60,475 nt of DNA from Gemmatimonadaceae bacterium (lineage in GTDB: Bacteria; Gemmatimonadota; Gemmatimonadetes; Gemmatimonadales; Gemmatimonadaceae), in the NCBI GenBank assembly GCA_040901985.1, contig JBBDYC010000001.1, positions 1 through 60,475 of the forward strand, in the 5' to 3' direction. Made by a program: the position numbers and the translations under genes. Position 1 is the stretch's first letter; each line of letters begins with the position of its first letter. Under the pieces are notes generated by a model, which did no database searches, was not told the DNA's origin, and worked only from the letters and a program-made list of their open reading frames with translations. Of this stretch, positions 24,968-40,594 are shown one piece after another.

Positions 24968-25211
24968 GGCGGGGGAATATGCACGCAATCCGGCGCCGCG
25001 GGGATGTGGTTGACCTGCCAGCGGTTAGGGCGGTGCCGACGTGCGATGCACCATTTGTGGACACCCCCGACCGTCGCATTGTGAGGCCGACAGTCTCTCG
25101 CGGTGCATTTGGACAGTCACTCCAGTGACCCGTGGCCGGACGGGATAGCCCCACCAAGACCGGCCGGCTGCCCAATGGAGGATTGCTCCGTGCAACAATA
25201 CATCGAGCCCA

Positions 25212-26049
25212 CGTCAGCTTCCCCCTCAGGCAGACCGTTTGAAGCTGGACTCGGACGGCGCGGGTGACCCCGGCAGGAAGGTGAGCGGCGGGACCCGGCC
25301 GAGGCTGTCGTGCGGCCGCCGCGTGTTGTAGATCGTGAGCCAGCGCTCGGTCTCGACGCGGACGTCGTCGAGCAAGCCGAAAAGGTACGCGTCCAGGACT
25401 TCCTTGCGATAGCTCCCGCTGAAGCGTTCGCCGTGCGGAAGCGCGTCCCGCTGTAGAGCGTGTCGGACATGAAGTCGAGCGCCCAGATCCCGTTGAGCAC
25501 GGCGGGCGCGTCCAGCGGCTGCCCCTCGCGCGGCGGCACGCGGCGCTTGCGGCGCCGCTTGAGGTTGAGACGCAACGCCTTGTAGACGCGATACACGCGC
25601 TTCCAGTTCCATGGGTGCCCGGCGAGTCGCAGCGCGTCGAAGCACATCCAGAAGCCCCACTGCGGCATCTTGGTGACGAGCGCCGTCAGCGCGGCGATCA
25701 CCTCCGCTTCGCGGGCGGCGTTACAGCTTGCGACTGAGGACATCCTTGATCGCCACATTCTCGAGCGCGAGTTCGGCGTACATCCGCTTGAGCTTCGCGT
25801 TCTCCGCCTCGAGCTCCCGGAGGCGCTTCAACTCGGCGACGCTCGCCCCGCCGTACTTCGACTTCCGGGTGAAGAATGTCGTCCGGCTGATCCCGTGCTT
25901 TCGGATCACCTCGGCGACCGGCACCCCGCCCTCGACCTCCTGCAGGGCCGCCACGATCTGGGACTCCGTGAACCTCGAACGGCGTATGTCTCCTCCTTTT
26001 GCACCGCCCAAGTCTCACTTCGAGTGCCTACTTCAGGGGTATGCTGACG
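25212..26049 (-). mobile_element. Degenerate IS3-family element (orfA start ATA, orfB with two internal deletions)
   Basis: OrfA (25721-25987) highly similar to 35004-35270; orfB fragments WALDFMSD and ERF.G.YR.E.LD; imperfect IRs CGTCAGCTTCCCCCTCAGG / CGTCAGCATACCCCTGAAG. Confidence 0.9.
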
Positions 26050-26171
26050 CTTCACAGAAGAAAATTCAATCGGAGTGGTTGAGTCGGCGGCGTGGTCCCC
26101 TGCCGCGCGGAGACGACGGCCGGCTCACGAGCCGGCCGCCGTCGTCTTGGCCCGGCCGGAGCCCGGCGGGA

Positions 26172-28751
26172 CTAGGGGAGGTGGTGGAACAGGTTGAGCA
26201 CCACGGTCAGGTGGCTCGTGGTCTCGAGGCGCCTCACCATCACGAAGCGCTGGCCGTCCGGGGTGACGTCATAGACCTGGTGGGTCAGGTCGGAGTTGAA
26301 CGCCGGGTCCGCGAAGAGGCGGGCGCGGCGGCCCACCTCGGCGGACCGCCCGTTGCGCACGGCCACCGCCATCATCGCGGCGCCCTCGCGGTAGAACAGT
26401 TCGTCCCCGCGCGGGGACCAGAGCGGCTCCGAGCCGCCGTCCGGCGAGACTTGGATCCGGGACCCCATGTCGGGGAACGAGCGGATGTAGACCTCGGCCC
26501 GCCCCGACTCATTCGAGACGTAGGCCATCCACTTGCCGTCGGGCGAGAGGGCGGGGGAGACCTCGTCCGCCGGGGTCGCGAGGAGCGGGACGAGGCGCGT
26601 CCCGGTCAGCCCCGGCCAGAGCCAGATGTCGCGCCTAGTCTCGCCGCCGACTGTCCGCACGACGAGTGACGTCCCGTCCGGCGTGAACAGCACCTCCCAG
26701 GGCTCCATGTCGGGCAGGGTCAGCAGCGACTCCGCCGGGGTAGCACCGTCGGCGTTCACGATCCGGACGTGACGGCGGCGTCCGACCTGCCGGTGGTAGG
26801 CGATCCGCCGGCCGTCCGGCGCCCACGCCGGGCGGCTGGCGGCACTGTCGAAGGTGAGGCGGGTCAGGGTGCGACGGTCCCGGTCCAGCAGCCAGATGTC
26901 CTGGTCCAGGCGCACCGCCAGCCGCCGCCCGTCCGGGGAAAGGCGCGGATCCCCGAAATCGCCCAGGCGCGGGAGCAGCCGCTCCACCCGACCGGCCCGA
27001 TCCACAAGGACCAGCGCCCCGAGGCCGTCCTGTCCGGGGATGACGATGGTCCCCGAGCGGGACAGGGCCATCTCGGCCGTGGCGATGTTCACCCGCACCG
27101 GCTCGTCGAGAATGACTGGCGGGCCGGTGATGACCAGGCGCCGCGCGTCGAACCGCACCGCCCGCAGCCGCTCGTCGAGACCGACATACACGAGGTGACC
27201 GGTGTCAACGTAGCGCGGATCGCTGCCCGGCAGGTCGAGACTCCGGGCGGTGCCCGTCCTGAGATCGAGGACGGCGAGGGAGCTGGCGACGCCCCGCTGC
27301 ACGCTGTAGAGCACGCCCGCGTCTTCCGGGAGCCCGTGGACGGACAAGATTGCCTCGTCCGGCCCGGTGGCCAGGAGTGTGGTGCGGACGCCGGCCAGGG
27401 TGCACTGCTGCAAGCCGGCGCGGTCGGTGAACACGACGGCGTCGCGTTCGAGCCAGCTTAACAACGGCAGGCCGCCGGCATCGCACACCGGCGTGGGGAC
27501 CCCGCCCGACACCGGCACGCGCACGATCCGGGTGCCAAGGAGGAAGCCGAGCTGGTGGCCGTCGGGGGAGAAGAAGGGCCGGGTGCCGTTCGTGCCACCC
27601 GCGACAGGCACGGGTTCCAGGGCGTCCATGGCGCGCAGAAAGAGTGTCCGTGTGCCGGCGGAGTCCTGCCCGTCATAGGCCAGGCGGGTGCCGTCGGGCG
27701 AGAGCGCGGGCTGGGAGAAGAGATCGCCGGCCCAGGCGGCGTGCGGTGGCAGGATCACCCGGAAGCGATGGACCGGCGGAGGCAGGGGACGCTCGGCGGG
27801 TCGGAGCAGGGTCCCGGCCAGGGCCGCAGCCAGGACGATCACCAGTCCCCACGGGGCCAGGGCCACCAGGCGCCGGGGAACGGGGGCGGTCGCGGTGCGG
27901 CGGGCCGCTTCCGTGGTGAAGAGGGGATCCTCGAGTGCCGCGGCGAAGTCCGCCACACGGGCGAAGCGGTCGGCGGGCAGCGAGGCAAGCGCCTGCAGGA
28001 TGGCCGCCTCCACGTGCGGCGGGACCGATCGCCGCGTGCGGCGCAGCGGCTCGGGCTCGTCCGTCAGGATCCTGGCGACGATAACCTGCGCGGTGGGACC
28101 CGTGAACGGCGGCTGCCCTGCGAGCATCTCGTAGGCCACGCAGCCCAGGGCATAGATGTCGCTGCGCGCGGTGATCTCGCGCTCGCCGGTGGCCTGCTCG
28201 GGGCTCATGTACTGGGGCGTGCCGAGGGAGAGGCCGGTCTCGGTCAGCCGCGACCCGGCCTGGCTCGCCGCGAGCGCGATGCCGAAGTCCGCGACCAGCG
28301 CGTGCCCATCGTGGAGGAGGATGTTCTCGGGCTTGATGTCGCGGTGCACGACTCCCTGCCGGTGGGCGTAGTCGAGCGCGTCCGCCACCTCGCGGGTGAG
28401 CCGCACCGCGTCAGCCACCGGCAGTTGCCGCTCGCGGCTCAAGCGCTCGCGCAGCGACTCGCCGGGCACGAACGGCATGGCGTACCACAGGAGCTGGTCG
28501 GCCTCACCCGAGTCCAGCAGACCGAGGATGTGAGGATGCTGGAGGTTGGCGGTCGTGCGGATCTCCTGCAGGAACCGCTCGGCGCCAATAATCGCGCCCA
28601 ATTCCGGACGGAGCACCTTGAGCGCGACCCTGCGGTCGTGGCGCAGGTCGTGAGCCAGGAAGACCGTGGCCATCCCGCCCGCGCCGAGCTCGCGCTCCAG
28701 TCGGTAGCGCCCGGCCAGCGCTGGTGCGAGACGCTCCAGCGGAGTGGTCAT
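26172..28751 (-). CDS. Ser/Thr protein kinase with TM segment and PD40/TolB-like beta-propeller
   Basis: GAGGMATV, HRDIKPEN, DFGIA, GTPQYMSPE; repeated SPDG motifs. Confidence 0.92.
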   Translation of the reverse strand: MTTPLERLAPALAGRYRLERELGAGGMATVFLAHDLRHDRRVALKVLRPELGAIIGAERFLQEIRTTANLQHPHILGLLDSGEADQLLWYAMPFVPGESLRERLSRERQLPVADAVRLTREVADALDYAHRQGVVHRDIKPENILLHDGHALVADFGIALAASQAGSRLTETGLSLGTPQYMSPEQATGEREITARSDIYALGCVAYEMLAGQPPFTGPTAQVIVARILTDEPEPLRRTRRSVPPHVEAAILQALASLPADRFARVADFAAALEDPLFTTEAARRTATAPVPRRLVALAPWGLVIVLAAALAGTLLRPAERPLPPPVHRFRVILPPHAAWAGDLFSQPALSPDGTRLAYDGQDSAGTRTLFLRAMDALEPVPVAGGTNGTRPFFSPDGHQLGFLLGTRIVRVPVSGGVPTPVCDAGGLPLLSWLERDAVVFTDRAGLQQCTLAGVRTTLLATGPDEAILSVHGLPEDAGVLYSVQRGVASSLAVLDLRTGTARSLDLPGSDPRYVDTGHLVYVGLDERLRAVRFDARRLVITGPPVILDEPVRVNIATAEMALSRSGTIVIPGQDGLGALVLVDRAGRVERLLPRLGDFGDPRLSPDGRRLAVRLDQDIWLLDRDRRTLTRLTFDSAASRPAWAPDGRRIAYHRQVGRRRHVRIVNADGATPAESLLTLPDMEPWEVLFTPDGTSLVVRTVGGETRRDIWLWPGLTGTRLVPLLATPADEVSPALSPDGKWMAYVSNESGRAEVYIRSFPDMGSRIQVSPDGGSEPLWSPRGDELFYREGAAMMAVAVRNGRSAEVGRRARLFADPAFNSDLTHQVYDVTPDGQRFVMVRRLETTSHLTVVLNLFHHLP

Positions 28752-28797
28752 GTGCATCCGCGAAGGGGTGAACATCGGTCGAAGCAGCGGAGGAACG

Positions 28798-28947
28798 CGG
28801 GATAGGAAATTCAACCGCCGTGTGGAAAGTATGTCGCGTGCGCGCGCGCACGGCGAGGGCGGCGCGCACCGGCGGCGGCAATGAATCGGTGGCACAACGG
28901 GCGGCGGGGCGGGCGCACCCGGCACGAGGGTCGCCGGCCGGGCTCCG
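28798..28947 (-). mobile_element. IS91/ISCR-like ori-end fragment (type A), 150 bp
   Basis: Closely similar to 39601-39750; ends GGTTGAATTTCCTATCCCG on - strand; palindrome CGTGCGCGCGCGCACG at 28837-28852. Confidence 0.75.
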
Positions 28948-28965
28948 ACAGATATTTACATTGCC

Positions 28966-31317
28966 TCACCAAGGCAGCTGCATGTTCGCCAGCACCTGCT
29001 GATAGCGCGAGTTGGCACGCAAGTGAGCGAACCATGGCCACGCCGTCATTTCGACGAGCCAGTAGTCCTTTCGCGTGTAGCCACGCTCGAGCCAGGTCAG
29101 AGCCTGTCCATCGTCGCCGAGCGCCGCGTGTAGAGCAGCCATGTCGAACGCCGAGACCAAGCCCTCACGCTCGCGTCCATTGAGCTCGGCCAGAATCTGT
29201 CCCGCCTCTTGCTTCCGGCTTGCTCGGGCGTATGCCGCACCCAGCATTGCCAGATAGTGCGAGCTCTGCATGCCCGGCCCCTGGATCGACTTCTCCAGAT
29301 ACGTCACGGCATCCGTCCAGCGTCCCTGCGCCAACCGCACCTCTCCGAGGCTGTGCAGCAGCAGGACATGGTCGGGGTTGATTGCCAACGCCTCCAACAA
29401 CTGCTGTGCCGCCACATCGTATTGCCCCGCGAAGAGATAATTCTGGCTGATATAGGCGCGAATCGTGGCTGAGAGCGGATCGAGGTCCCTGGCGCGCTGG
29501 AGCTCACGCAGACCTTCGTCGTAGCGAGTGGTCACCCGGCCGAGCGCGCGCCCGTAGTATTGATGAACGGTGGCAGAGCCTGGGTTGAGCTCGAGCGCGC
29601 GCTGAAACTCCCCCTCCGCCTCGCGCCAGTTCCACTCGCAGTTCAACTGCCACATCGCTTTCGCGACATGCGCCTCGGCCAGCGATTGATCCTCCCGCAA
29701 TGCCTGATCGATCGCGGCCGCAGCCAACCTGCACCCCTCCTGCTGCGGCATGCCCCCTTGCTCCCCCAGCCACAGATACGTGGCGCCGAGTGCTGCGTGG
29801 ACGGGGGCGTACGCCGCGTCGTGGCTCAAGGCCTTCTTGAAGTTCTCGACCGCATCCCTCGACCCCGGAAGCGTCCTTTGATTCCACTGGTGCCTACCAA
29901 GCAGGTACAGCTCGAAGGCCGCCGGATCCACCGGACGGGCGGCGGCGAGGCGGACCCGCTCCAGCGGCGTCAGCGTCGCCTTGATCTCCTCGGCGATCGC
30001 CCGGGCGACTTCGGTGTGCAGCTCGAGGACGCCCCGCAGCTCCCGGTCGAACTGATGCCCCCAAACGCGCCGGTCGTTTGGCCCGTCGATCAGTTGCACG
30101 GTAATCCGTACCCGGTTTCCCTCACGGGCCACCGACCCTTCGATCAGCCCCCGCACTCCGAGCTCGCGCGCGATCTGCGGGGCCGGCTTCTGGTTCCCGC
30201 GGTACCGCATCGCCGAGGTTCGCGAGATGACCTTGAGGGCGCTGATCTGCGAGAGCTCGGCCGTCAGCGCCTCATGCATCCCGTCGACGAAGTACGATTG
30301 CGCCGAGTCGCCCGTGCGGTTGTCGAGCGGCAGAACCACGAGCGAATCGATCCGGGATGATGCGCCGCGTCCGGCGATCCACCATCCGCCGGCGAGGAGG
30401 AGGATCGCGACCGCCAGCAGGGCGCCGATCTTCACGCGGCGTTGACCGACCGCGCCGCGCCGCGTGGGCGCGCCGGTTCCCGCGGCGCTCCGTTCCAGGG
30501 CGTCGGCGAACGCTCGTGACGTCGCGAAGCGGTCGGCGGGGACCCTGGCCAGCGCCTTTGCGATCGCGGTCTCGACGGCTTCGGGGACGGTGTTGCGCAC
30601 GACACGCAGGCTGGGGACCGGGTCCACGGCCTTGCGCGCCAGGATCGCGACGGGCGTCGCGCCGCCGAACGGCGGCTCCCCGGCAAGCATCTCATACAAG
30701 ACACAGCCGAGCGCATAGATGTCGCAGCGGCCGTCCAGGTCCGCGCTGCCGGTCGCCTGTTCCGGGCTCATGTAGGCCGGCGTCCCGATGGCGAGCCCCG
30801 TCTCCGTCAGCGTCGCCCCACCCGCTTGGTCGATCGCCCGTGCGATCCCGAAATCCGCCACCACCGCGTGGCCGCTTTGCAGGAGGATGTTCTCGGGCTT
30901 GATGTCGCGGTGGATGACCCCGTGGCTGTGGGCGTAGGAGAGCGCGTCCGCCACCTCGCGGCTGATCTGGAGCGCGTCGTCGAGCGGAAGCTGCTTCTCG
31001 CGGGTGAGCCGATCCCGGAGCGATTCGCCCTCCACGTAGGGCATGACGAAGTACAGGAACCCGTCGGCGTTCCCGGAATCGTGCAACGGCAGGATGTGGG
31101 GGTGGGTCAGCCGAGCAGCAAGTTCGATCTCGCGGGAGAAGCGCTCAGGGCCGAGGGCGGCGGCCAGTTCCGGGCGCAGGACCTTGAGGGCGACCCGCCG
31201 GTGGTGCTTGCGGTCGGTGGCGAGATAGACCGTGGCCATGCCACCGCGTCCCAACTCGCGTTGGATCGCGTACCGGTCCGCCATGGCTGTCGTGAGGCGG
31301 TCCACGGTCTCGGACAT
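28966..31317 (-). CDS. Ser/Thr protein kinase with TM, TolB-N-like domain and TPR repeats
   Basis: Kinase motifs; SLVVLPL.N, LKVISRTSAM.Y, EGSV.REG.RVRITVQLID; TPR-like ALELNP repeats. Confidence 0.92.
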   Translation of the reverse strand: MSETVDRLTTAMADRYAIQRELGRGGMATVYLATDRKHHRRVALKVLRPELAAALGPERFSREIELAARLTHPHILPLHDSGNADGFLYFVMPYVEGESLRDRLTREKQLPLDDALQISREVADALSYAHSHGVIHRDIKPENILLQSGHAVVADFGIARAIDQAGGATLTETGLAIGTPAYMSPEQATGSADLDGRCDIYALGCVLYEMLAGEPPFGGATPVAILARKAVDPVPSLRVVRNTVPEAVETAIAKALARVPADRFATSRAFADALERSAAGTGAPTRRGAVGQRRVKIGALLAVAILLLAGGWWIAGRGASSRIDSLVVLPLDNRTGDSAQSYFVDGMHEALTAELSQISALKVISRTSAMRYRGNQKPAPQIARELGVRGLIEGSVAREGNRVRITVQLIDGPNDRRVWGHQFDRELRGVLELHTEVARAIAEEIKATLTPLERVRLAAARPVDPAAFELYLLGRHQWNQRTLPGSRDAVENFKKALSHDAAYAPVHAALGATYLWLGEQGGMPQQEGCRLAAAAIDQALREDQSLAEAHVAKAMWQLNCEWNWREAEGEFQRALELNPGSATVHQYYGRALGRVTTRYDEGLRELQRARDLDPLSATIRAYISQNYLFAGQYDVAAQQLLEALAINPDHVLLLHSLGEVRLAQGRWTDAVTYLEKSIQGPGMQSSHYLAMLGAAYARASRKQEAGQILAELNGREREGLVSAFDMAALHAALGDDGQALTWLERGYTRKDYWLVEMTAWPWFAHLRANSRYQQVLANMQLPW

Positions 31318-31333
31318 CCGCCCTCCCGGGTCG

Positions 31334-32098
31334 CGGGATGGGAAATTCAATCGGGGTCGCTCGGGTATCCGCCGAACGTACGGCGCGATCGCCGACCCCG
31401 CGAGGGCTGGCGGGCGCCCGGCGGCGTGCCCTCATCCTCCCTGCGCTACTCGCGCCTCGTGGGCCGTCTGCACGGCGGGTGTTCTGGGCGCCCAGTGCCG
31501 CAGGGACCGATCGGACGTCCCGGTGGGACTGACGCCCACGCCGAACGTCCCCGCGCGTCGTCGGGGCGTCGGGGCGAGGATCAGGGCGTGCGGTGGGCCG
31601 CGGTCGCAGCGCGGGCGCGAAGGTGCGTGAGGATCCGGTCGATTACCGAAGTCTGGGTGATGCACGCGACGATCCGCATCGTGCCGTGGCACGCCGGGCA
31701 CGCGAGTGGGTCGACCTCGAAGATCTGCTGCAGCAACGCCGCCCAGCGACGGGTGGCCTCGGTGGGCGCCAGCCTCGGTGCCAGGACGATGACGGGCAGC
31801 GCATTGACGGTGGCGGGCTCGGCCCGCCGTCGCATGCCACGCGGACGGTTGGCGTACCAACCATAGTACCGGGTGGTGACGTGGGCCTCGTCGGGGATGT
31901 GCACCAGCACCCGGGCGAGGAACTCCAACGGGTCCATCGTCTCGGTCCCCGCCGTCGGGCCCTCGGACTTGTCCGAGCGATAGGTCACCGCCTTCGTGGT
32001 CCGGTCTCGTACGAGAGCCGCTCCAGCGCGACCGGATTGCGCGCGCAGTACCGCGCGAGCCGTGTGGCGAAGTCGCGGTCGTCCTCGGGGACCCAGAA
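31334..32098 (-). mobile_element. IS91/ISCR-like element remnant (type B): frameshifted transposase 3' part plus ori end
   Basis: LARYCARNP, DPLEFLARV..HIP, RYYGWYANR, WAALL.QIFEVDPL.CP.C.G.MRIVA.I; frameshift near 32005; ends ATTGAATTTCCCATCCCG. Confidence 0.85.
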
Positions 32099-32125
32099 TT
32101 CAGTAATCTCGATGGGCTCGCACCA

Positions 32126-32159
32126 AGAGAAAGAGCCCCGGCGTTTCCGCCGAGGCCCG
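32126..32159 (-). terminator. Intrinsic terminator of S8 protease gene
   Basis: GGGCCTCGGCG-GAAA-CGCCGGGGCTC followed by TTTCTCTT on - strand. Confidence 0.7.
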
Positions 32160-32179
32160 TTCTCGCAACTCACATGTGC

Positions 32180-33313
32180 TTATCGGCTGACGATCGGATC
32201 AGGATTGCCGTCCGGATCGCACTTGGCATAACCGTTCGTCTTTGCCGAGCCGAGCAACAGAACGCCCGCCGCATGCGGCGCAGCCATGGACGTACCACTG
32301 TACGTGGTGGTTCCGCCGCCTTTCTTGGTGGAAAGAACGCTCACGCCCGGCGCGGCGTAGTCCACTGGCGGGTTGCCCCAGTTGGACCAGCTGGGCATGC
32401 AGTCGTTGACGTCGATCGCGGAAATGGTGTAGATGTTGGTGCCCTCCGTGCGCGCGGGCGTGAAGTCCCCCGCGAAGGCGCCATCGTTCCCCGCGGCCAG
32501 CGCGAACCTGATGCCTTTCGCCGCGGCGTCCTGCACCGCTTTTTCCAGCGTGGCGTTCGAACCGCTGCCGCCCAGACTCATGTTGGCGACCTCACCCGAC
32601 ACCCCATTCGCGGCCACGTAGTTCACGCCGTTCACCACACCTTCCCATGTGCCGGAGCCACTGTTGTCGAGCACGCGCACCGCGCAGACGTACGCATTCG
32701 CGGCCACGCCAACGACGTCGATGCTGTTGTTGATCGCCGCAACCGTTCCGGCAACGTGCGTGCCGTGGCCGTTGCCGTCCTGCGGACTATCCTTGCCACG
32801 AGCCACGAAATTCGCGTGACATGCCCTGCTGGTGTTCAGATCCGCGTGGGCCAGGTCGATCCCGGTATCGATGATCCAGGCTGTCTTCCCTGTGCCATCA
32901 CCGGCGCCACCCACGCGGGTGATGCCCCACGGCGTCGACTGGCCGCCGCCACTCCCCGGGCGCGCCACCGCGCGCGGCACGATCAGGCTGACGGGTCCGT
33001 CGGGCTCCACGATCGCCACGCGTGAATCCGCCCGCAGGCGATCGGCCAACTGATCCGACATCATCGCGGAAAATCCGCGCGCGGCGTGCTCACGAACGCT
33101 CCGAATCGCGAAGCCGTTCAACGCCGCCATGCTCCCCGCGGTGCCGCGCACGTCCGTCACGTCATCGCTGAACGTCACCAGGTACACCCCGGCCTGGGCG
33201 CGCGCCGCCGCTCCCGCGTTCACATCCTGCAGTGCGGTCGGGGCATCGGGGGATGAGCACGACATCGTGACAGCCAGCACGCCGAGCACGCTTCCCGTCA
33301 TCCATCTGTTCAT
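32180..33313 (-). CDS. Subtilisin-like S8 serine protease with I9 propeptide, probable lipoprotein
   Basis: IIDTGID, GHGTHVAGT, SGTSMAAPH triad; lipobox-like VTMSC. Confidence 0.93.
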   Translation of the reverse strand: MNRWMTGSVLGVLAVTMSCSSPDAPTALQDVNAGAAARAQAGVYLVTFSDDVTDVRGTAGSMAALNGFAIRSVREHAARGFSAMMSDQLADRLRADSRVAIVEPDGPVSLIVPRAVARPGSGGGQSTPWGITRVGGAGDGTGKTAWIIDTGIDLAHADLNTSRACHANFVARGKDSPQDGNGHGTHVAGTVAAINNSIDVVGVAANAYVCAVRVLDNSGSGTWEGVVNGVNYVAANGVSGEVANMSLGGSGSNATLEKAVQDAAAKGIRFALAAGNDGAFAGDFTPARTEGTNIYTISAIDVNDCMPSWSNWGNPPVDYAAPGVSVLSTKKGGGTTTYSGTSMAAPHAAGVLLLGSAKTNGYAKCDPDGNPDPIVSR

Positions 33314-33523
33314 CGCGCACCTCTTCTGAAGTAAGGGGAGTATGCACTGGAGGTCGAGCCACCGTGCGCAAGGATGCTAAATTGCCGGCAAGCCGTCAAG
33401 ACTCAGGAGGCACCGGCAACCCCCGAATACATGACTTGCGCCCGTCAGTCGCCTGGCCTGCTCCTCATCCTCGTGCTGCTTCTCACGCCGGCACTCGCGC
33501 GCCACCCGGCCAGCGCGTCCCTT

Positions 33524-33779
33524 CGGGATGGGAAATTCAATCGGGGTCGCTCGGGTATCCGCCGGCCTTACGGCGCGATCGCCGACCACGCGCGGGCTGG
33601 CGGGCGCCCAGCGGCGTGTCCTCCGCCCCGCGGCCGCGTCTCGTGGGCCGTCGGCACGGCGGTTGTGCTGGGCGCCCAGTACTGAGGGGACCGATCGGAC
33701 GTCCCGGTGGGACTGACGCCCACGCCGAACGTCACCGCGCGTCGTCGGGGCGTCGGGGCGAGGCTCAGGGCGTGCGGTG
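33524..33779 (-). mobile_element. IS91/ISCR-like ori-end fragment (type B), 256 bp
   Basis: Near-copy of 31334-31595 including the last transposase codons and stop; same terminal ATTGAATTTCCCATCCCG. Confidence 0.8.
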
Positions 33780-33803
33780 AGACCCTCGGGTACCGGAAGT
33801 AGC

Positions 33804-34754
33804 TCAGTTTGGCCGATACCAGTCGTGCAGTCGCAGCCGATCGTGGATCATCCGGCTCACCTTGGCCTGGCCCGATGGGGCAGGGTGCACCCCGTCCGCC
33901 ACGTAGTCCGCCCGGTCGTAACAGGTCCCGCTCCGGTTGGTGACCCCGTCGGTGCAGGCCGGTGCCCAGAGGTAGGGGCCCCAGCCATACCAGACCCCGT
34001 CCACGGCGGGATGGGCCGCGAGCCAGCTGTTGAGGGCATGGCCCTCCTCATAGCTCAACGGTTCCCCACGGCCCACGGTCCCGGCAAAGCCACCGTAGCT
34101 CCGGGACGAGGTGTACACCGCCCGCACCGCCGGGAACTTGGCCTTCACTCTCGCCGAGAAGGCGGTCAGGTTGGCGACGAAGTTGTCGAAGTCGCTGCCG
34201 GGGGCGGGATAGGCGGGCAGCGCGGCCCCTCCCGAGCCCGTGGTGAACATGTTGGCCGCCTTGTGGTAGATCACCAGAACCTGATCGAGTCGGATGCCGG
34301 CCTGTCCCAGCTTCTGCTGGATGCAGCTGGTCCACAGGTTGCTGTCGAATGCCGGGTCGATCCACCGCTCGATCGCGTTTCCGCCCACCGCGCAGTTGGC
34401 CACCCGGACGGCGGGGTTCACCGCGCTGGCGTATTCCCCGCTCAATCGAAGTATCCAGTCGGCGCACTCCTGGTTGGAATTGCTCATCCCGATGCAGACC
34501 ACCCCGATGACCCCGTCGACCGGGGTGATGGTCGGTTCCAGGCTCGGGGTGAGCCGGAGCCGGAGTCCCTTGTAACTGCCGGGGGTCTGGGCCCCATCGT
34601 CGCCTCGGTCAATGGGGTACGGCTGGGTGACATCAGGGCCGGGAGACGGCGAATTCAGGTCGGGTTCGGTGATTCCGGAGTCGGCACAGCCCACGGCGAG
34701 GAATGCCGTCAGGCCGAGGACACGATGGAGGGGCACTCTACCGTTGTCTAACAT
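33804..34754 (-). CDS. Lipoprotein with SGNH/GDSL-like hydrolase fold
   Basis: LAVGC lipobox, CIGMSN (block I-like), DGVHP (block V); start uncertain. Confidence 0.6.
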   Translation of the reverse strand: MLDNGRVPLHRVLGLTAFLAVGCADSGITEPDLNSPSPGPDVTQPYPIDRGDDGAQTPGSYKGLRLRLTPSLEPTITPVDGVIGVVCIGMSNSNQECADWILRLSGEYASAVNPAVRVANCAVGGNAIERWIDPAFDSNLWTSCIQQKLGQAGIRLDQVLVIYHKAANMFTTGSGGAALPAYPAPGSDFDNFVANLTAFSARVKAKFPAVRAVYTSSRSYGGFAGTVGRGEPLSYEEGHALNSWLAAHPAVDGVWYGWGPYLWAPACTDGVTNRSGTCYDRADYVADGVHPAPSGQAKVSRMIHDRLRLHDWYRPN

Positions 34755-35003
34755 TACGACACTCCGCTGGCTTGGGGCTACCTGGAAGGACGGCGGAAGC
34801 CCGGCGGCGTTAACGCCACTCTATCGTGGGGCGGGACCTCGGTCGGAGTCAGCGGTGAGCGGAGGGGGATGCCCGCATCGAGCAGCATCCAGTATTCGAC
34901 CTGTTCGGAGACCCGCGTCATCTCCAGGAAGGACTCGAAGTGTCCTCTTCCCCTTGAGGGGGACCACTGAGAGTTAGACTATGGCGATGACCAAGGAGAC
35001 GTC

Positions 35004-35270
35004 ATGCGCCGTTCGAAGTTCAGTGAGTCCCAGATTGTCGCGGTTCTGAAGGAAGTCGAGGCCGGGGTCCCGGTGGCGGAGGTGATCCGGAAGCAGGGGA
35101 TCAGCCGGGCGACGTTCTTCACCTGGCGGGCCAAGTACGGCGGCGCGACCGTCGCTGAGCTCAAGCGCCTGAAGGAACTCGAGCAGGAGAATGCCCGGCT
35201 CAAGCGAATGTACGCGGATCTCGCGATGGAGAACGCGGCGATCAAGGAGGTCCTCGGTCGCAAGCTGTAA
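35004..35270 (+). CDS. IS3 transposase OrfA (HTH)
   Basis: MRRSKFSESQIV..LKE.EAG, GIS.ATFF.W..KYGG, LKELEQEN.RLKRMYA. Confidence 0.93.
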   Translation: MRRSKFSESQIVAVLKEVEAGVPVAEVIRKQGISRATFFTWRAKYGGATVAELKRLKELEQENARLKRMYADLAMENAAIKEVLGRKL

Positions 35271-35290
35271 CGCCGCCCGCGGCGCGGCAG

Positions 35291-36097
35291 GTGATCGCCA
35301 TCCTGGTGGACGAAGGGCTCTCGGTGCGCCGAGCCTGCCAGGTGGCATCCCTCGCGCGGGCGGCGTACTACCGACCGCTGCAGGACCGGCTCGATCGCGA
35401 CGGCGAGATCATCGCCGCGCTGTCGGCGCTCGTCGCCGAACTGCCCCAGTGGGGCTTTGGGCTCTGCTACCAGCATCTGCGCAACGCCGGACATCCGTGG
35501 AATCGAAAGCGCGTGCTGCGCGTGTATCGCCAGCTGCGGCTGCACCTGCCGCGGCGGGCGAAGAAGCGCGTGCCGACGCGGGTGAAGCAGCCGCTCGACG
35601 CGCCGCCGATCCTCAATCGCGTCTGGGGCATCGATTTCATGTCGAACCAGCTGTACACCGGGCCGCGCTTCCGCACGATGAACGTGGTCGACGAGGGGAA
35701 TCGCGAGGCGCTCGCCGTGGAGATCGCCTGGAGCTTTCCGGCGGTGCGCGTCGTGGCGATACTCGACCAGCTCGTCGCCCTGTATGGGGCGCCGGACGCG
35801 CTACGGCTAGACAACGGGCCCGAGATGATCAGGGAGGTCCTGCGCGCGTGGGCCGCGCAGCACGGCGTGCGCTTGCTCTTCATCCAGCCGGGCAAGCCGA
35901 CGCAGAACGCCTACATCGAACGTTTCAACGGGACCTATCGCCGGGAAGTGCTCGACGCCTATATCTTCCGCTCGCTGGCCGATGTGCGCTTCGAGACCGA
36001 GCACTGGCTCCCAATCTACAACACGCGGCGACCCCATGAGAGCCTTGGCGGGGTCCCACCGCTCACCTTCCTGCCGAGGCCATCGGTCGCCGCGTAG
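35291..36097 (+). CDS. IS3 transposase OrfB (DDE integrase core)
   Basis: WGIDFMS, DNGPE, PGKPTQNAYIERFNG, YN..RPH. Confidence 0.93.
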   Translation: MIAILVDEGLSVRRACQVASLARAAYYRPLQDRLDRDGEIIAALSALVAELPQWGFGLCYQHLRNAGHPWNRKRVLRVYRQLRLHLPRRAKKRVPTRVKQPLDAPPILNRVWGIDFMSNQLYTGPRFRTMNVVDEGNREALAVEIAWSFPAVRVVAILDQLVALYGAPDALRLDNGPEMIREVLRAWAAQHGVRLLFIQPGKPTQNAYIERFNGTYRREVLDAYIFRSLADVRFETEHWLPIYNTRRPHESLGGVPPLTFLPRPSVAA

Positions 36098-36135
36098 TCC
36101 AGCAATCGCTGGTCCCCCTCAAGGGGAAGAGGACA

Positions 36136-36433
36136 ATGCGCCGTCAGGCCGAGCCCGCCACCGTCAATGCGCTGCCCGACATCGTCCCGGCACCGAGGCT
36201 GGCGCCCACCGAGGCCACCCGTCGCTGGGCGGCGTTGCTGCAGCAGATCTTCGAGGTCGACCCGCTCGCCTGCCCGCCGTGCAGACGGCCCACGAGACGC
36301 GGCCGCGGGGCGGAGGGCACGCCGCCGGGCGCCCGCCAGCCCTCGCGTGGTCGGCGATCGCGCCGGATGTTCGACGGATACCCGAGCGACCCGGACGGAT
36401 ACCCGAGCGACCCCGATTGAATTTCCTATCCCG
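36136..36433 (+). mobile_element. IS91/ISCR-like remnant (type B, inverted, internally deleted) with ori end
   Basis: MRRQAEP...QIFEVDPLAC matches the 31581 transposase; ends ATTGAATTTCCTATCCCG; 21-bp tandem duplication at 36373-36414. Confidence 0.85.
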
Positions 36434-36520
36434 ACCCGTTGGGTGACAACACCACAGAGGTCGGGCGCGAGGCGAACCGGCGGATCACGCTGCAGATCGA
36501 TCCGATCCGGCCCTGGGGCG
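36430..36520 (+). pseudogene. C-terminal fragment of OmpA/MotB-like peptidoglycan-binding domain gene
   Basis: PLGDNTTEVGREANRRI resembles the OmpA-C motif P.ADN.T.EGR..NRRV; begins at the ori-end junction. Confidence 0.55.
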
Positions 36521-36587
36521 ACGTCCTCGCGTCGGCTCAGATGACCCGCGAGCGCAGCAAGACCCACGCGGGACACTCGCGCCCCCG

Positions 36588-39527
36588 CTACCGCCGTGCC
36601 TGCGCTCCCGTCTCCACGGGCCCGAACACCCGATCCAGGAACGCATTGATCGGCGGCACGCGCACTTCGACCGGCGGGTTGTGCCCCACCCCGTCCAGCA
36701 GCACGAGCTCCTTCGGCTCGCGCAAGAGGTTCCAGAGCGGCAGTCCGCGTGAGAGCCAGGGATGCTCCTCGTCCAACTGCCCATTGATCACGAGTTTCGG
36801 CACGCGGATGTACGGTGCGAAGTTGAAGTTCGCCGCCTCGGGCAGCGTCGGCTGTATGCGTTCGTCGATCCCCGCGCCGGCGAATATGACCGCCTTGAAG
36901 CGATCATCCAACGCCGCGAAGACCAGTCGCGATCCCGCGCCCCAGCTGAGTCCATAATACGCGACCCGCGTCGTGTCGACCTCGGTCCGCGTCGAGAGAT
37001 AGTCCAGCGACATCCGCAGTTCCGTCGCGTGCCGCACCATCTGGTCGCGGAACCCGACCGAGGGTGGCGGCGCGGGCGTCGCGCCCGACGGGAATGGACG
37101 CTCGATCATCCCGTCGAACACGGGCGCGAGCAACGCCCGCCCCGCCTTGATGTGCGGTCCCAGATCGGCCTCTACCGTCGTCCACACCGGCTCGAAGAAG
37201 AACGCCCCGGAGCTCGACACGTACACGATCGTCTGGAAGGGCGCACGGGCGCGCGTGGGGAGATAGAGATAGACGAGGATCGAGTCGCCGGCGACGCCGT
37301 CGATCCAGAGCCGTTCGCGCGTCCAGTCCGGCGTCGTATCCGTCCGGACGACGCGCGCGTTCGCGGGCTGGCGGTCGTAGCGGTAGAAGCCGAGCAGGGT
37401 CCGATACGTGGCCGCGTCGACCGGGCGGTACGAGGGAGTAGGTATCTGGATCAGCACCGGGCCAGCCCCCTGATCGCCGCCTTCCGAGGAAGGGTCCGCA
37501 TTGCGCGCGCACCGGAACCCGATGGCCGGCGAGGCCGACTCGCCCGGCAGCGATCCGAGCACCGCGAAGAGATACGCCGGGTCCTGCCAGGAGCCGCCGG
37601 TGGCCGAGTAGCCGTCGGGCCCCGGGTTCTGCAACCACTCCTTCGCGTTCCCGGCGAGCGCGTGGACGCCGTAGGGGCTGATTCCGAATGGGAAGGCGTC
37701 GACCGGGGCCGTGCCGGAGCCGCCAAAGTTCGCGCGACGCCCTGTGCTGACTGTCGCCGACATGTATCCCCACGGCATGATGACTCCCCACGGCGAGACG
37801 ATCCCGTCGCGCGAGGCCTTCTCCCATTCATACAAGGTCGGCAGCCGCTTCCCGTGGGACACACAGAACGCGGCCGCCTCGAACCACGACACACCCGTCA
37901 CCGGATGGTCGGCACGCTCGGCCGGCGGCTCCTGACTCACCCAGTCACGGGGCGCCCTGAGCCCGGTGCGATCGACGAATCGCGACGGGGCGATCCCCGC
38001 TGCGGTCGCGGCACCCCAGTACTCCGCCTGCCCGTAGCCGCCCCTGCGCACGAACTCGCGATACTGCGCATTGCTCACCTCGAACCGGTCGAGGAAGTAC
38101 GGACGCAGGTCAGCGGCCATTCCCAGCGGAAGGGCCGGACCGACGATCTCGTAACGTCCGCCCGGGATGGCGACCATCCCTTCCGGCACGCTGTCGGCAG
38201 GGAGCAGCGCGAGCGAGAGGGAGACCCGACGCCCGTCGACACCCGGAACGTTCTCGCGGCCGAAGAGACTCGACGCGATGCGCTCGAGTGGTGCGTAGCG
38301 CTCCTTCCGCACGACCAGCCGGAACTCGCCGCGCGCGATCCGCCGCGCCGTGATCGGGGTGGTGCCGAAGCGAACGCTGTCGCCTACGGGCTCCGCGCCC
38401 GAAGGGATCCGCTGTATCCAGACCTCTGCGCCGGCCGGGTCGCTCGTGACCGTGAGCAGGTCGGAGACCGTCGCAAGGAGCGCCACGAGCGTGCTGTCGT
38501 CCCCGAGCCGACGCTCGGCGCGCTCGGCCAGCGCGAATGCGTCGGGGTAGCGCCCGGCTGCCGCGAGCGCCGCGATCTCCGGCAGCAACTCTCGCGCCTT
38601 CCCCGTCTGTGCGCTCGACCAGAGTGGCCAGACGGTCGCTGCGACGATGGCGAGCGCGACGGCCCCGATCGCCACCAGTTTCCCGGGACTCACCGTCGCA
38701 ACGACCGGCAGCGCACACGCGGCGATGAACTCGTTCGGGGTCGCGAATCGCTCGCCCGGCGACTTGGCCAGCGCACGCTGCAGCGCGGCCTCCACCTCGC
38801 TCGGCACGTCCGTCCGCAGGGCACGGACCGAGCGCGGCGGGTCGGCCATGATCTGGACCATCACCGACTGCACGTTCGGGCCGGTGAACACCGGCTCACC
38901 GGCAAGCATCTCGAACAACACACAGGCGAGCGAGTACACATCGCTCCGCCCGTCGAGCGGCTGGTCGGCCGAGACCTGCTCCGGACTCATGTACGTCGGC
39001 GTGCCGAGCGAGATCCCCACCGACGTCAGGCGTCCGCGATCGACGTGGGAGAGCGCCAGTGCGATGCCGAAGTCCGCGACGAGCGCTTCGTTCCCGGTGA
39101 GCAGGATGTTGTCCGGCTTGATGTCTCGATGGATCACGCCGCGACTGTGCGCCGCCGTGAGCGCCGAGGCGACGTCCCCGGCGATGCGGAGCGCGTCGGC
39201 GAACGGGAGCTTCTTGTCGCGGTGGAGCCGGGCGCGGAGCGACTCGCCTTCGACGTACGGCATCACGTAGAAGAACAGGCCGTCCGCCTCACCGGAATCG
39301 AACAGCGGCAGGATGTGCGGGTGTTGCAGCCCGGCCGTGACCTCGATCTCCTGCAGGAAGCGATCGCTGCCGAGTGCGGCGCTCAACGCGGGGAGCAGGA
39401 CCTTGATCGCGACCTGTCGACGATGCTTCAGATCCTCGGCCAGATACACGGTCGCCGTGCCGCCGCGACCGAGCTCGCGGACGACGCGGTAGCGGTCGGG
39501 GAGAGAGGGAAGGCTGGCCGTGGTCAT
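36588..39527 (-). CDS. Ser/Thr kinase fused to FGE-sulfatase-like domain and C-terminal alpha/beta hydrolase
   Basis: Kinase motifs; TM; FEVSNAQY..F, HPVTGVSW.EA..FC, RLPT..EWEKA, GNAKEW, IGFRC; GLSWG, GQLD, GHNPP. Confidence 0.9.
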   Translation of the reverse strand: MTTASLPSLPDRYRVVRELGRGGTATVYLAEDLKHRRQVAIKVLLPALSAALGSDRFLQEIEVTAGLQHPHILPLFDSGEADGLFFYVMPYVEGESLRARLHRDKKLPFADALRIAGDVASALTAAHSRGVIHRDIKPDNILLTGNEALVADFGIALALSHVDRGRLTSVGISLGTPTYMSPEQVSADQPLDGRSDVYSLACVLFEMLAGEPVFTGPNVQSVMVQIMADPPRSVRALRTDVPSEVEAALQRALAKSPGERFATPNEFIAACALPVVATVSPGKLVAIGAVALAIVAATVWPLWSSAQTGKARELLPEIAALAAAGRYPDAFALAERAERRLGDDSTLVALLATVSDLLTVTSDPAGAEVWIQRIPSGAEPVGDSVRFGTTPITARRIARGEFRLVVRKERYAPLERIASSLFGRENVPGVDGRRVSLSLALLPADSVPEGMVAIPGGRYEIVGPALPLGMAADLRPYFLDRFEVSNAQYREFVRRGGYGQAEYWGAATAAGIAPSRFVDRTGLRAPRDWVSQEPPAERADHPVTGVSWFEAAAFCVSHGKRLPTLYEWEKASRDGIVSPWGVIMPWGYMSATVSTGRRANFGGSGTAPVDAFPFGISPYGVHALAGNAKEWLQNPGPDGYSATGGSWQDPAYLFAVLGSLPGESASPAIGFRCARNADPSSEGGDQGAGPVLIQIPTPSYRPVDAATYRTLLGFYRYDRQPANARVVRTDTTPDWTRERLWIDGVAGDSILVYLYLPTRARAPFQTIVYVSSSGAFFFEPVWTTVEADLGPHIKAGRALLAPVFDGMIERPFPSGATPAPPPSVGFRDQMVRHATELRMSLDYLSTRTEVDTTRVAYYGLSWGAGSRLVFAALDDRFKAVIFAGAGIDERIQPTLPEAANFNFAPYIRVPKLVINGQLDEEHPWLSRGLPLWNLLREPKELVLLDGVGHNPPVEVRVPPINAFLDRVFGPVETGAQARR

Positions 39528-39600
39528 CGCGAGACCAAGTTGCGGACCGCGCGCCTTTCGCGCCACCCTCGCCTCACGGTGCGGATCGCTGCCTCCCGCT

Positions 39601-40045
39601 CGGGATAGAAAGTTCAATCGCGGTGTGGGAAGTATTTCGCGTGCGCGCGCGCACGGCGAGGGCGGCGGGCACCGGCGGCGGCAATACAACGGGCGGCGGG
39701 GCGGCCTTATCCGGCACGCCGGTCGCCGGCCGGGCTCCGGCTGGCGGCCAGGTAAGGCGACGGCCGGACCTCCGGGCACGCCGCGAGCCCCCGCGGGGTT
39801 GGGTGGGGGGGACCACCGGGTACCGTCAGGGGGCGCGCAGGGCGTCGGCGGGTGCGCTGGCAGGCCCCGGCGCGCCGGGGCCCGCGTCGAGGGGGACTCC
39901 GCGCGCCGGCCGGGGTCGCGCGTGCGGCGCGGGTGCGGAGGTGCGTGAGGATCTGGTCAATCGCCGACGGCTGGCTGATGAAGGCGAGAATCCGCATAAG
40001 CCCGCGGCACGTCGGGCACCCGAGGGGGTCGACCTCGAAGATCTG
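39601..40045 (-). mobile_element. IS91/ISCR-like remnant (type A): transposase C-terminus plus ori end
   Basis: QIFEVDPLGCPTCRGLMRILAFISQPSAIDQILTHL; ends ATTGAACTTTCTATCCCG. Confidence 0.82.
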
Positions 40046-40594
40046 TACTGCGCCGCGCACTAGCTGTACGGGCGTCTCCACGGACTCGGCGGCCTTCGGC
40101 CCGCGACGGCAATCTTCGGCGGCTCGCTCGGCGGGTCCGCGGTCGGCGAGGCCAAGACGTTCCATCAGATCCAGGACCTGACCGGGAAGTCGCCGGAGGA
40201 GATTGCGGCGGATCTGAGGGTGTGGTTCGCCGAGTCGGACCCGATCACCGACTTCAACGCATTCTTCGAACGCGTCGCCGTCCACGTGAAACGCAACAAC
40301 CTGGTATTGGCCCCGTTGAACGTGGTGATGTTCTCCGACAGCGTTCCGGACTTTCCGGGTGCCCGGGTCCGAGGCGACTCGCTCTATGCGAGGGTGAACC
40401 TCGGTCCGCTGGTTTGCCTCTCCCGGAGCGTAACGGTCCGGCTGCTGTATGCCACGCCGACCGTCTCGCAGAGCTGGGAGGAGCACGTGCTGCGGAAACG
40501 GGTGCGGCTCTGGACGCAGGACGCGCAGACGGCGCTCTGGGATTGGACGCGGGAGATTGTGGACTTCCGGGTGCGGCGGCCGCGGGTGATCTGA
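40046..40594 (+). pseudogene. 5'-truncated hypothetical gene with internal stop
   Basis: Frame of ORF 40220-40594 stays protein-like back to the IS91-remnant junction, with one TAG at ~40061 and no native start. Confidence 0.45.

Follow-up and report, generated by a model that had tools for sequence, protein, structure and literature searches.

Genes alternating with origin ends of an IS91/ISCR-type rolling-circle lineage in a Gemmatimonadaceae contig: probable relics of poorly terminated, one-ended transposition

We have analysed a stretch of 60,475 nucleotides (the window) of contig JBBDYC010000001.1 from a Gemmatimonadaceae bacterium (assembly GCA_040901985.1, here G000), in which genes for kinases, a protease and a probable lipoprotein alternate with the origin ends (oriIS, here ori) of IS91/ISCR-type transposable elements. 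We think it probable that this array is an old relic stack, which one-ended, poorly terminating rolling-circle transposition, with mobilisation in trans, built up in one island and which IS3 and IS110 elements later broke.

Five exact copies of the ori motif are present, with tips at 28798, 31334, 33524 and 39601 on the minus strand and at 36416-36433 on the plus strand (ori 1, 2, 3, 5 and 4 in Table 1), against a chance expectation of 0.02 from shuffled sequences. They form two families: the copies at 28798 and 39601 are 84% identical over 150 bp, and those at 31334 and 33524 are 89% identical over 262 bp. The copies and their division had been recognised in an earlier reading made from the letters alone (the sequence-only reading), and both are borne out. 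Each copy terminates a 5′-truncated element end; the mutual identity of these remnants is 84-94% and every breakpoint is different. The remnant at 31334 matches the Pfam profile PF04986 (Y2_Tnp, E 1.4e-8), and those at 36433 and 39601 match it at 88% and 72% at the amino acid level, so that the proposed attachment of these three copies to IS91-family transposase remnants holds. A profile built on the last 100 bases of the element end and searched with nhmmer returned 11 ori ends in the 2.64-Mb assembly, 6 of them inside the window, where they occupy 13.6 kb. The sixth of these, a damaged and tip-less end beyond the PD40-kinase gene (ori 0; weak profile match, E 0.016), had been overlooked. No intact transposase is found anywhere in the assembly, which extends what had been said of the window; the sole Y2_Tnp matches are two of the remnants, and unassembled copies may exist. 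Contigs of run X1, which may be the source sample, span with zero differences three of the tips (28798, 33524 and 36433) and four of the inner edges (remnants at 28798, 31334, 33524 and 39601), while the tips at 31334 and 39601 are spanned by no X1 contig piece among the matches listed.

Along the minus strand, four genes are each followed by an ori end: the SGNH-like gene stops 24 bp from the inner edge of ori 3, the S8 protease gene 82 bp from ori 2, the TPR kinase gene 18 bp from ori 1 and the PD40 kinase gene 48 bp from ori 0. The 18- and 24-bp distances agree with those given in the sequence-only reading for the 150- and 256-bp ends, and the S8 gene with its terminator-like hairpin does abut a third. 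The kinase-FGE-hydrolase gene lies between the tips of ori 5 and the inverted ori 4 and has no co-oriented ori behind it, which had also escaped notice. The same is true of the SGNH label, given to a protein without a Pfam match; its Atlas structure neighbours (TM 0.73-0.74, some of them named SGNH, taken as a lead only) point to a probable SGNH-fold lipoprotein. A start-less open reading frame without a Pfam match abuts the inner edge of ori 5 (40046-40594).

The parent element is found intact in relatives, as the sequence-only reading had suggested should be looked for. At four loci (L072, L092, L066 and L176) transposases of 430-450 amino acids match PF04986 (E 2e-30) and PF14319 (Zn_Tnp_IS91), with HPHLH at residue 182, and the ori 2 remnant is 81% identical to these elements in nucleotides. 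The ori lies 3′ of the transposase gene, the two element ends are dissimilar in sequence, and DNA on the inner side co-moves. The domains and this polarity are those of the IS91/ISCR superfamily, as had been supposed for the window's ends. The transposase has a single tyrosine motif, RLARY (R-x-x-x-Y, residues 263-267 of the L072 protein), which we take to be a mark of the ISCR type; a TACT box is conserved 36-31 nucleotides inside the tip. The closest plasmid IS91/ISCR protein reaches at most 37% identity, and by this measure the lineage is separate from the plasmid proteins; no description of it was found in the literature, with most subscription journals outside the coverage. An exact 20-nucleotide ori pattern searched in species-representative genomes gave 111 stretches, and among the 80 listed 66 are titled Gemmatimonadota. 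Of 24 same-genus genomes 5 contain the pattern, of 16 others none, and 30 of 401 family genomes match the transposase at E ≤ 1e-100.

The comparison of element ends also bears on where the transposase acts. No target tetranucleotide was found outside the tip, the commonest tetramer occurring at 6 of 130 tips. The last four bases of the motif were considered as the target instead, and are disfavoured by tip duplications and by subfamily-specific tips. At 7 of 138 tips the motif is followed by a perfect copy of its own last 6-17 bases (a count made without a shuffle control), and two further cases were seen. Such duplications locate the nick at the motif's outer edge and suggest abortive restarts. 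On the inner side, 55 remnants of 52-1806 bp, most of them short, have neither a common breakpoint nor a fixed boundary, and no motif is common to the inner junctions of 9 G000 remnants. The junction statistics leave out L040, L071, L078, L089 and other matches without element homology (remnant below 40 bp).

Units of passenger gene and ori move in other genomes, as judged from four pairs of loci that have the same passenger and different outer flanks. L077 and L102 share 1379 bp at 97.8%, the identity ending at the tip and both flanks differing. L048 and L060 share 1972 bp at 99.7%, with a DUF3224 gene 46 bp from the remnant, and for L072 and L092 the shared stretch is at least 6 kb long, at 91.5%; in both cases the sequence outside the tip is different. 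L248 and L254 share a 4491-bp block of permease, transposase and ori at 98.9%; its far end lies 84 bp inside a divergent gene, which is thereby cut. At L252 (G110:C13:329545-335220), a full copy and a 1459-bp truncated copy, 100% identical and in direct repeat, enclose an amidohydrolase gene and a 5′-cut methyltransferase gene; by its identity this sandwich is very recent. Among the passengers at other loci are a Tricorn-type peptidase, an amidohydrolase, a rhodopsin, a metallophosphoesterase and an MBL-fold protein. Stacks of several oris recur as well, with five at L077 (co-oriented, similar to the window) and three each at L080 and L079. We also observed a direct repeat of ~65 bp on each side of the moved block in L102, and a 3.8-kb block present twice, at 95%, on one G237 contig near three transposase copies (L247:10414-14259 and L249:8426-12271).

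A co-oriented stop codon lies within 60 bp of the inner edge at 13 of 52 ends against a null of 9% (p = 5e-4), and at 10 of 48 (p = 0.009) when duplicates and IS3 are dropped; the weight of this excess is lessened by the null, which consists of random intergenic points of G000 under a simple codon-score gene caller that misses some genes. The tight spacing has to be weighed against a plainer history, possible but markedly less probable in our view, in which elements and fragments collected in an island that tolerated them and were cut back by deletions, the window genes never having moved with their ori. Such an IS graveyard would agree with an accessory region that holds two IS3 elements and an IS110 stub, with the differing breakpoints and limited likeness of the remnants, and with the absence of orientation bias on the outer side (8 vs 6 of 68). 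It would also agree with the finding that 10 of 12 G000 remnants are oriented against the fork, by GC skew or (on C14) gene-strand bias, just as a passage in PMC3971601 describes a lagging-strand bias of IS91 elements. It accounts poorly for the spacing above the null and for the movement of passenger units in relatives. It also fits poorly with ori 3, whose inner and outer flanks are not neighbours in the closest homologue of the SGNH gene. This homologue, at L141, is 96% identical in nucleotides to 33782-34498 and continues into an intact convergent gene ending T-L-V-Y-R-K-stop, and the 24-bp spacer of the window reads T-L-G-Y-R-K-stop, i.e., the last codons of a gene of the L141 type. Since the spacer is a cut neighbour gene, the SGNH gene appears to have been taken from a chromosomal context, with the junction inside the neighbour.

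The window genes themselves show no sign of being native cassettes, and several results weigh against their having arrived as ori-borne units. No window unit was found at a second site, and none of the 40 homologue loci gave an ori or attC match (27 for the SGNH gene, 12 for S8 and 1 for a full-length kinase; the likeness is 50-75% for most, and some of the contigs are short). The 59 flank pairs assessed by protein continuity revealed no empty site for any ori; the 22 two-sided matches come from 2 oris and are all separate kinases, none contiguous. No circle junction appears among the X1 contig matches listed, which are contigs and not raw reads, with a flat depth of 20-26; this result does not speak against circles. 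The junctions of the window would look no different had insertion been followed by plain deletion. The locus pairs from relatives are mostly metagenome bins, and single cases may be chimeras and taxon labels wrong. The discrete cassettes, or integron-like platform, of the sequence-only reading are therefore not upheld, given the lack of a fixed inner boundary, the homologue loci without ori and the junction that cuts a host gene; its mobile gene-to-ori units are borne out in relatives and are probable for the window. Random truncation points, which it had named among the signs of a simple graveyard, are seen, and gene-ori units do recur at other sites in relatives.

We have also considered an ori-to-ori mode, in which an HUH transposase would start at one ori and stop at, or integrate into, the nick of the next, so that cassettes are excised and added site-specifically. 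Relaxases stop at, or integrate into, the nick at oriT. The clustering of the G000 oris in the window and the start of genes 16-73 bp outside three tips would fit such a mode, as would the abutting of families A and B, which homologous recombination cannot explain. Adjacent oris are, moreover, co-oriented in 24 of 33 pairs (p = 0.007), or in 20 of 29 (p = 0.03) after dropping 4 non-independent pairs. However, the lagging-strand replication bias accounts for this co-orientation. The L077/L102 block passes through an internal ori and ends ~190 bp beyond it, which argues against termination at the next ori, and the L252 tip lies within a gene. Fixed cassette ends are lacking, and the motif is absent from 74 of 80 better-assembled family genomes; the other 6 have 1-3 copies each, and none of the 80 has a dense array. 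We therefore regard this mode as improbable.

The ori ends might instead have been retained as portable promoters that drive the gene outside the tip, for which a passage in PMC6218425 on P-OUT of ISCR1 provides a precedent. The TPR kinase gene starts 16 bp outside ori 2, with the S8 terminator upstream, and the TACT box is conserved. On the other hand, outer genes in relatives lack a co-orientation bias (19 vs 16 of 68 within 250 bp), and no sigma-70 consensus match was found in 25900-40300, which makes this explanation very unlikely. The specialisation for signalling genes that had been suggested is not sustained either: the association of kinases with G000 tips (4 of 11, post hoc p = 7e-6) has no counterpart in relatives, where kinases account for 3 of 66 genes next to an ori and for 15 of 407 other genes (p = 0.47).

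We propose that the relic stack arose as follows. A Gemmatimonadota HUH rolling-circle transposase would nick the outer margin of the ori motif, which lies 3′ of the transposase gene, and copying would proceed inward with no reliable terminator, by a chemistry taken over from IS91. Early termination would leave ori-anchored fragments of any length, consistent with the random truncation seen by comparison. A fragment landing just behind a gene, or trimmed to that position by deletion, would make a gene-ori unit, and a transposase acting in trans could restart at the remnant ori, pass through the gene and end at random somewhere past it. As a whole gene is delivered only where remnant and spacer are short, short ones would be favoured. 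The four gene-ori units (SGNH, S8, TPR kinase and PD40 kinase) may have come together by repeated landing in one accessory island, by nested capture, or by re-integration of circles at an existing remnant. IS3 and IS110 would afterwards have broken and inverted parts of the array, and the stack is probably inert in this assembly now.

The IS3 element between the SGNH gene and the inverted ori 4, whose segments it joins, has no target duplication, a feature missed in the sequence-only reading; contigs of runs X2 and X3 cease matching at 33782 and 34940. A second IS3, broken and inverted, bounds the array on the left (25117-26047). In L251:141-1480 (G317:C13) and L234:206-1540 (G318:C27) a whole IS110 is inserted exactly at the CT of an ori motif, and the window's stub at ori 0 matches the terminus of this element. 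The non-coding end of this IS110 carries the left half of the target and the reverse complement of its right half, which we take to be putative bridge-RNA-like guides. No account of an IS110 aimed at oriIS, nor of an ISCR transposase with an attC on its promoter side, was found in the literature, whose coverage was mostly open-access. The region at 40-46 kb is accessory in the genus. In a synteny comparison aimed at an empty island, the right flank is matched, and that partly, in only 2 of 5 genus genomes.

At its other end the intact element carries an attC-family site, located ~100-200 bp 5′ of the transposase in 12 of 22 transposase-anchored loci that include the gene 5′ end, and in 0 of 5 of one subfamily (sites at L072:4570-4661, L066:2701-2792 and L176:551-644, also in L230, L236 and others). 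A generic geometry scan, used instead of a stricter first heuristic that gave 1 match against 1 in the control, finds R′′/L′′/L′/R′ boxes, 5/6-nucleotide spacers, a hairpin and a GTTRRRY crossover, with 16 consensus pairs, 3 of them with compensatory change. The site faces outward, away from the transposase; conservation ends at GTT, and a purine follows in 13 of 14. By this geometry it is an attC, and its recombination by IntI is predicted. Cassette-like genes or more attC sites follow in L180, L200, L202, L077, L206, L198 and L025, and the derivatives L039, L104 and L200 retain attC and ori without most of the transposase. The same attC family stands beside both G000 intI genes, on C3 and C17; the window has no intI, and no attC match below E 0.3 within 24-42 kb.

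These data allow a tentative proposal, which we rate well below the relic stack, that the parent is a rolling-circle/integron hybrid with an ori at one end and an outward attC at the other. Host IntI would load cassettes and poorly terminating transposition would remove them; transposase-free ori and attC-ori derivatives (L039, L104, L200, L077) would be mobile units added at resident ori nicks, building arrays like that of the window, and the IS110 with ori-matching guides would parasitise the ori.

Table 1. Coordinates of the array in the window, from left to right, with the evidence for each feature
Feature	Position	Strand	Evidence
IS110-family end stub, 13 bp, at CT of ori 0; remainder replaced by IS3	26046..26058	-	13-nucleotide match, same position as L251/L234
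ori 0, degenerate, tip lost	26059..26124	-	nhmmer model positions 27-94, E 0.016; blastn 78-80% to relatives' ori
Ser/Thr kinase with PD40 propeller; start ~40 bp outside ori 1	26172..28757	-	PF00069, PF07676; gene call
ori 1, family B, 150-bp remnant	28798..28947	-	motif search, remnant alignment
TPR Ser/Thr kinase; start 16 bp outside ori 2	28966..31317	-	Pfam
ori 2, family A, 764-bp remnant, frameshifted transposase 3′ part	31334..32097	-	PF04986; identity to intact elements
Terminator-like hairpin of S8 gene, between S8 stop and ori 2	32133-32158		hairpin scan
S8 subtilase with I9 propeptide	32180..33313	-	Pfam
ori 3, family A, 256-bp remnant	33524..33779	-	motif search, remnant alignment
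Last codons and stop of convergent host gene, apparently cut at capture junction	33780..33803	+	comparison with L141
SGNH-fold lipoprotein (probable)	33804..34754	-	Atlas structure neighbours
IS3-family element	34941-36135	+	PF01527, PF00665; flanks read directly
ori 4, family A, 298-bp remnant, inverted; internal deletion and 21-bp duplication	36136..36433	+	alignment, ori profile
Ser/Thr kinase-FGE-hydrolase; start 73 bp outside ori 5, end 154 bp outside ori 4 tip	36588..39527	-	Pfam
ori 5, family B, 445-bp remnant with transposase C-terminal piece	39601..40045	-	alignment

Elsewhere in G000, remnants lie at C19:3495-6634, C14:3883 and 27214, C9:113224 and C8:110891-111232; on C19 an HTH-MEDS gene stops near a 31-77-bp ori, and an opposite-facing gene sits between two co-oriented oris. 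Near-copies of the motif 5′ of a host gene, at C10:81752 of G000 and at L001 and L003 (the last two adjoining tRNA-like sequence), were rejected as ori ends, having no ori-model match and the look of a host locus; they may be chance matches or an old domesticated end. The two G000 integron-integrase genes (C3:1378-3304 and C17:378-1981) exceed the TIGR02249 cut-off; 3′ of each lies a co-oriented attC in an inverted arrangement, with toxin-antitoxin-like genes between intI and attC on C3; further attC matches are on C7, C8 (2-3), C9, C14 and C16. At L191:3003-3050, just past the attC, there is a short palindrome that resembles a type I-E CRISPR repeat.

The array works like ISCR gene capture, in a separate lineage. 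As in ISCR elements (ISCR1 of complex class 1 integrons, ISCR28), there is an HUH transposase with the ori 3′ of its gene, probably one-ended transposition, putatively without target duplication, and passengers on the inner side, and the direct-repeat arrangement at L252 corresponds to the ISCR28 sandwich, a gene between a remnant and a second oriIS, as summarised in a passage of PMC12772301. The present lineage differs in its cargo of kinases, proteases, hydrolases and permeases, in its transposase-free stacks of up to 4-5 remnants of mixed families, and in the outward-facing attC on the promoter side of the transposase gene. With canonical IS91 elements (IS91, IS801, IS1294) it shares the two Pfam domains and polar ends. 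For IS91, part of PMC13181058 describes mini-elements with ~80 bp of ori that move with TnpA in trans, and a fixed target tetranucleotide. Here, in place of a conserved target tetranucleotide and a matching ter cleavage site, the outer flank is unconserved over the 130 tips and the inner junctions have no common motif. Termination is seemingly far leakier than the 1-14% reported, no orf121-like gene was seen in this lineage, and R-x-x-x-Y replaces the two tyrosines (presumably with the meaning given above). The likeness to integrons lies in the attC-like far end of the intact element; compared with a cassette array, the window lacks attC, intI and fixed boundaries, and its cargo is oriented opposite to attC cassettes. 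Helitrons, in an excerpt of PMC4778049, likewise capture genes by failed termination of rolling-circle replication; as eukaryotic Rep-helicase elements they are an analogy only.

Nearly all that is known of gene capture by ISCR elements comes from resistance loci, and most of the mechanism has been inferred. The Gemmatimonadota lineage, from a poorly studied phylum, offers natural snapshots of the steps with ordinary genes, among them tip duplications, truncated element copies, the 100%-identical sandwich and passenger units that have moved, and because it supplies intact transposases, the nick site, termination at a second ori and the movement of remnants in trans become testable. With the attC end and the ori-targeting IS110, three kinds of mobile element are brought together. 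If the hybrid proposal is true, it would amount to a phylum-wide terminator-less gene-shuffling system; the lineage is in any case a possible route for accessory-gene turnover in Gemmatimonadota.

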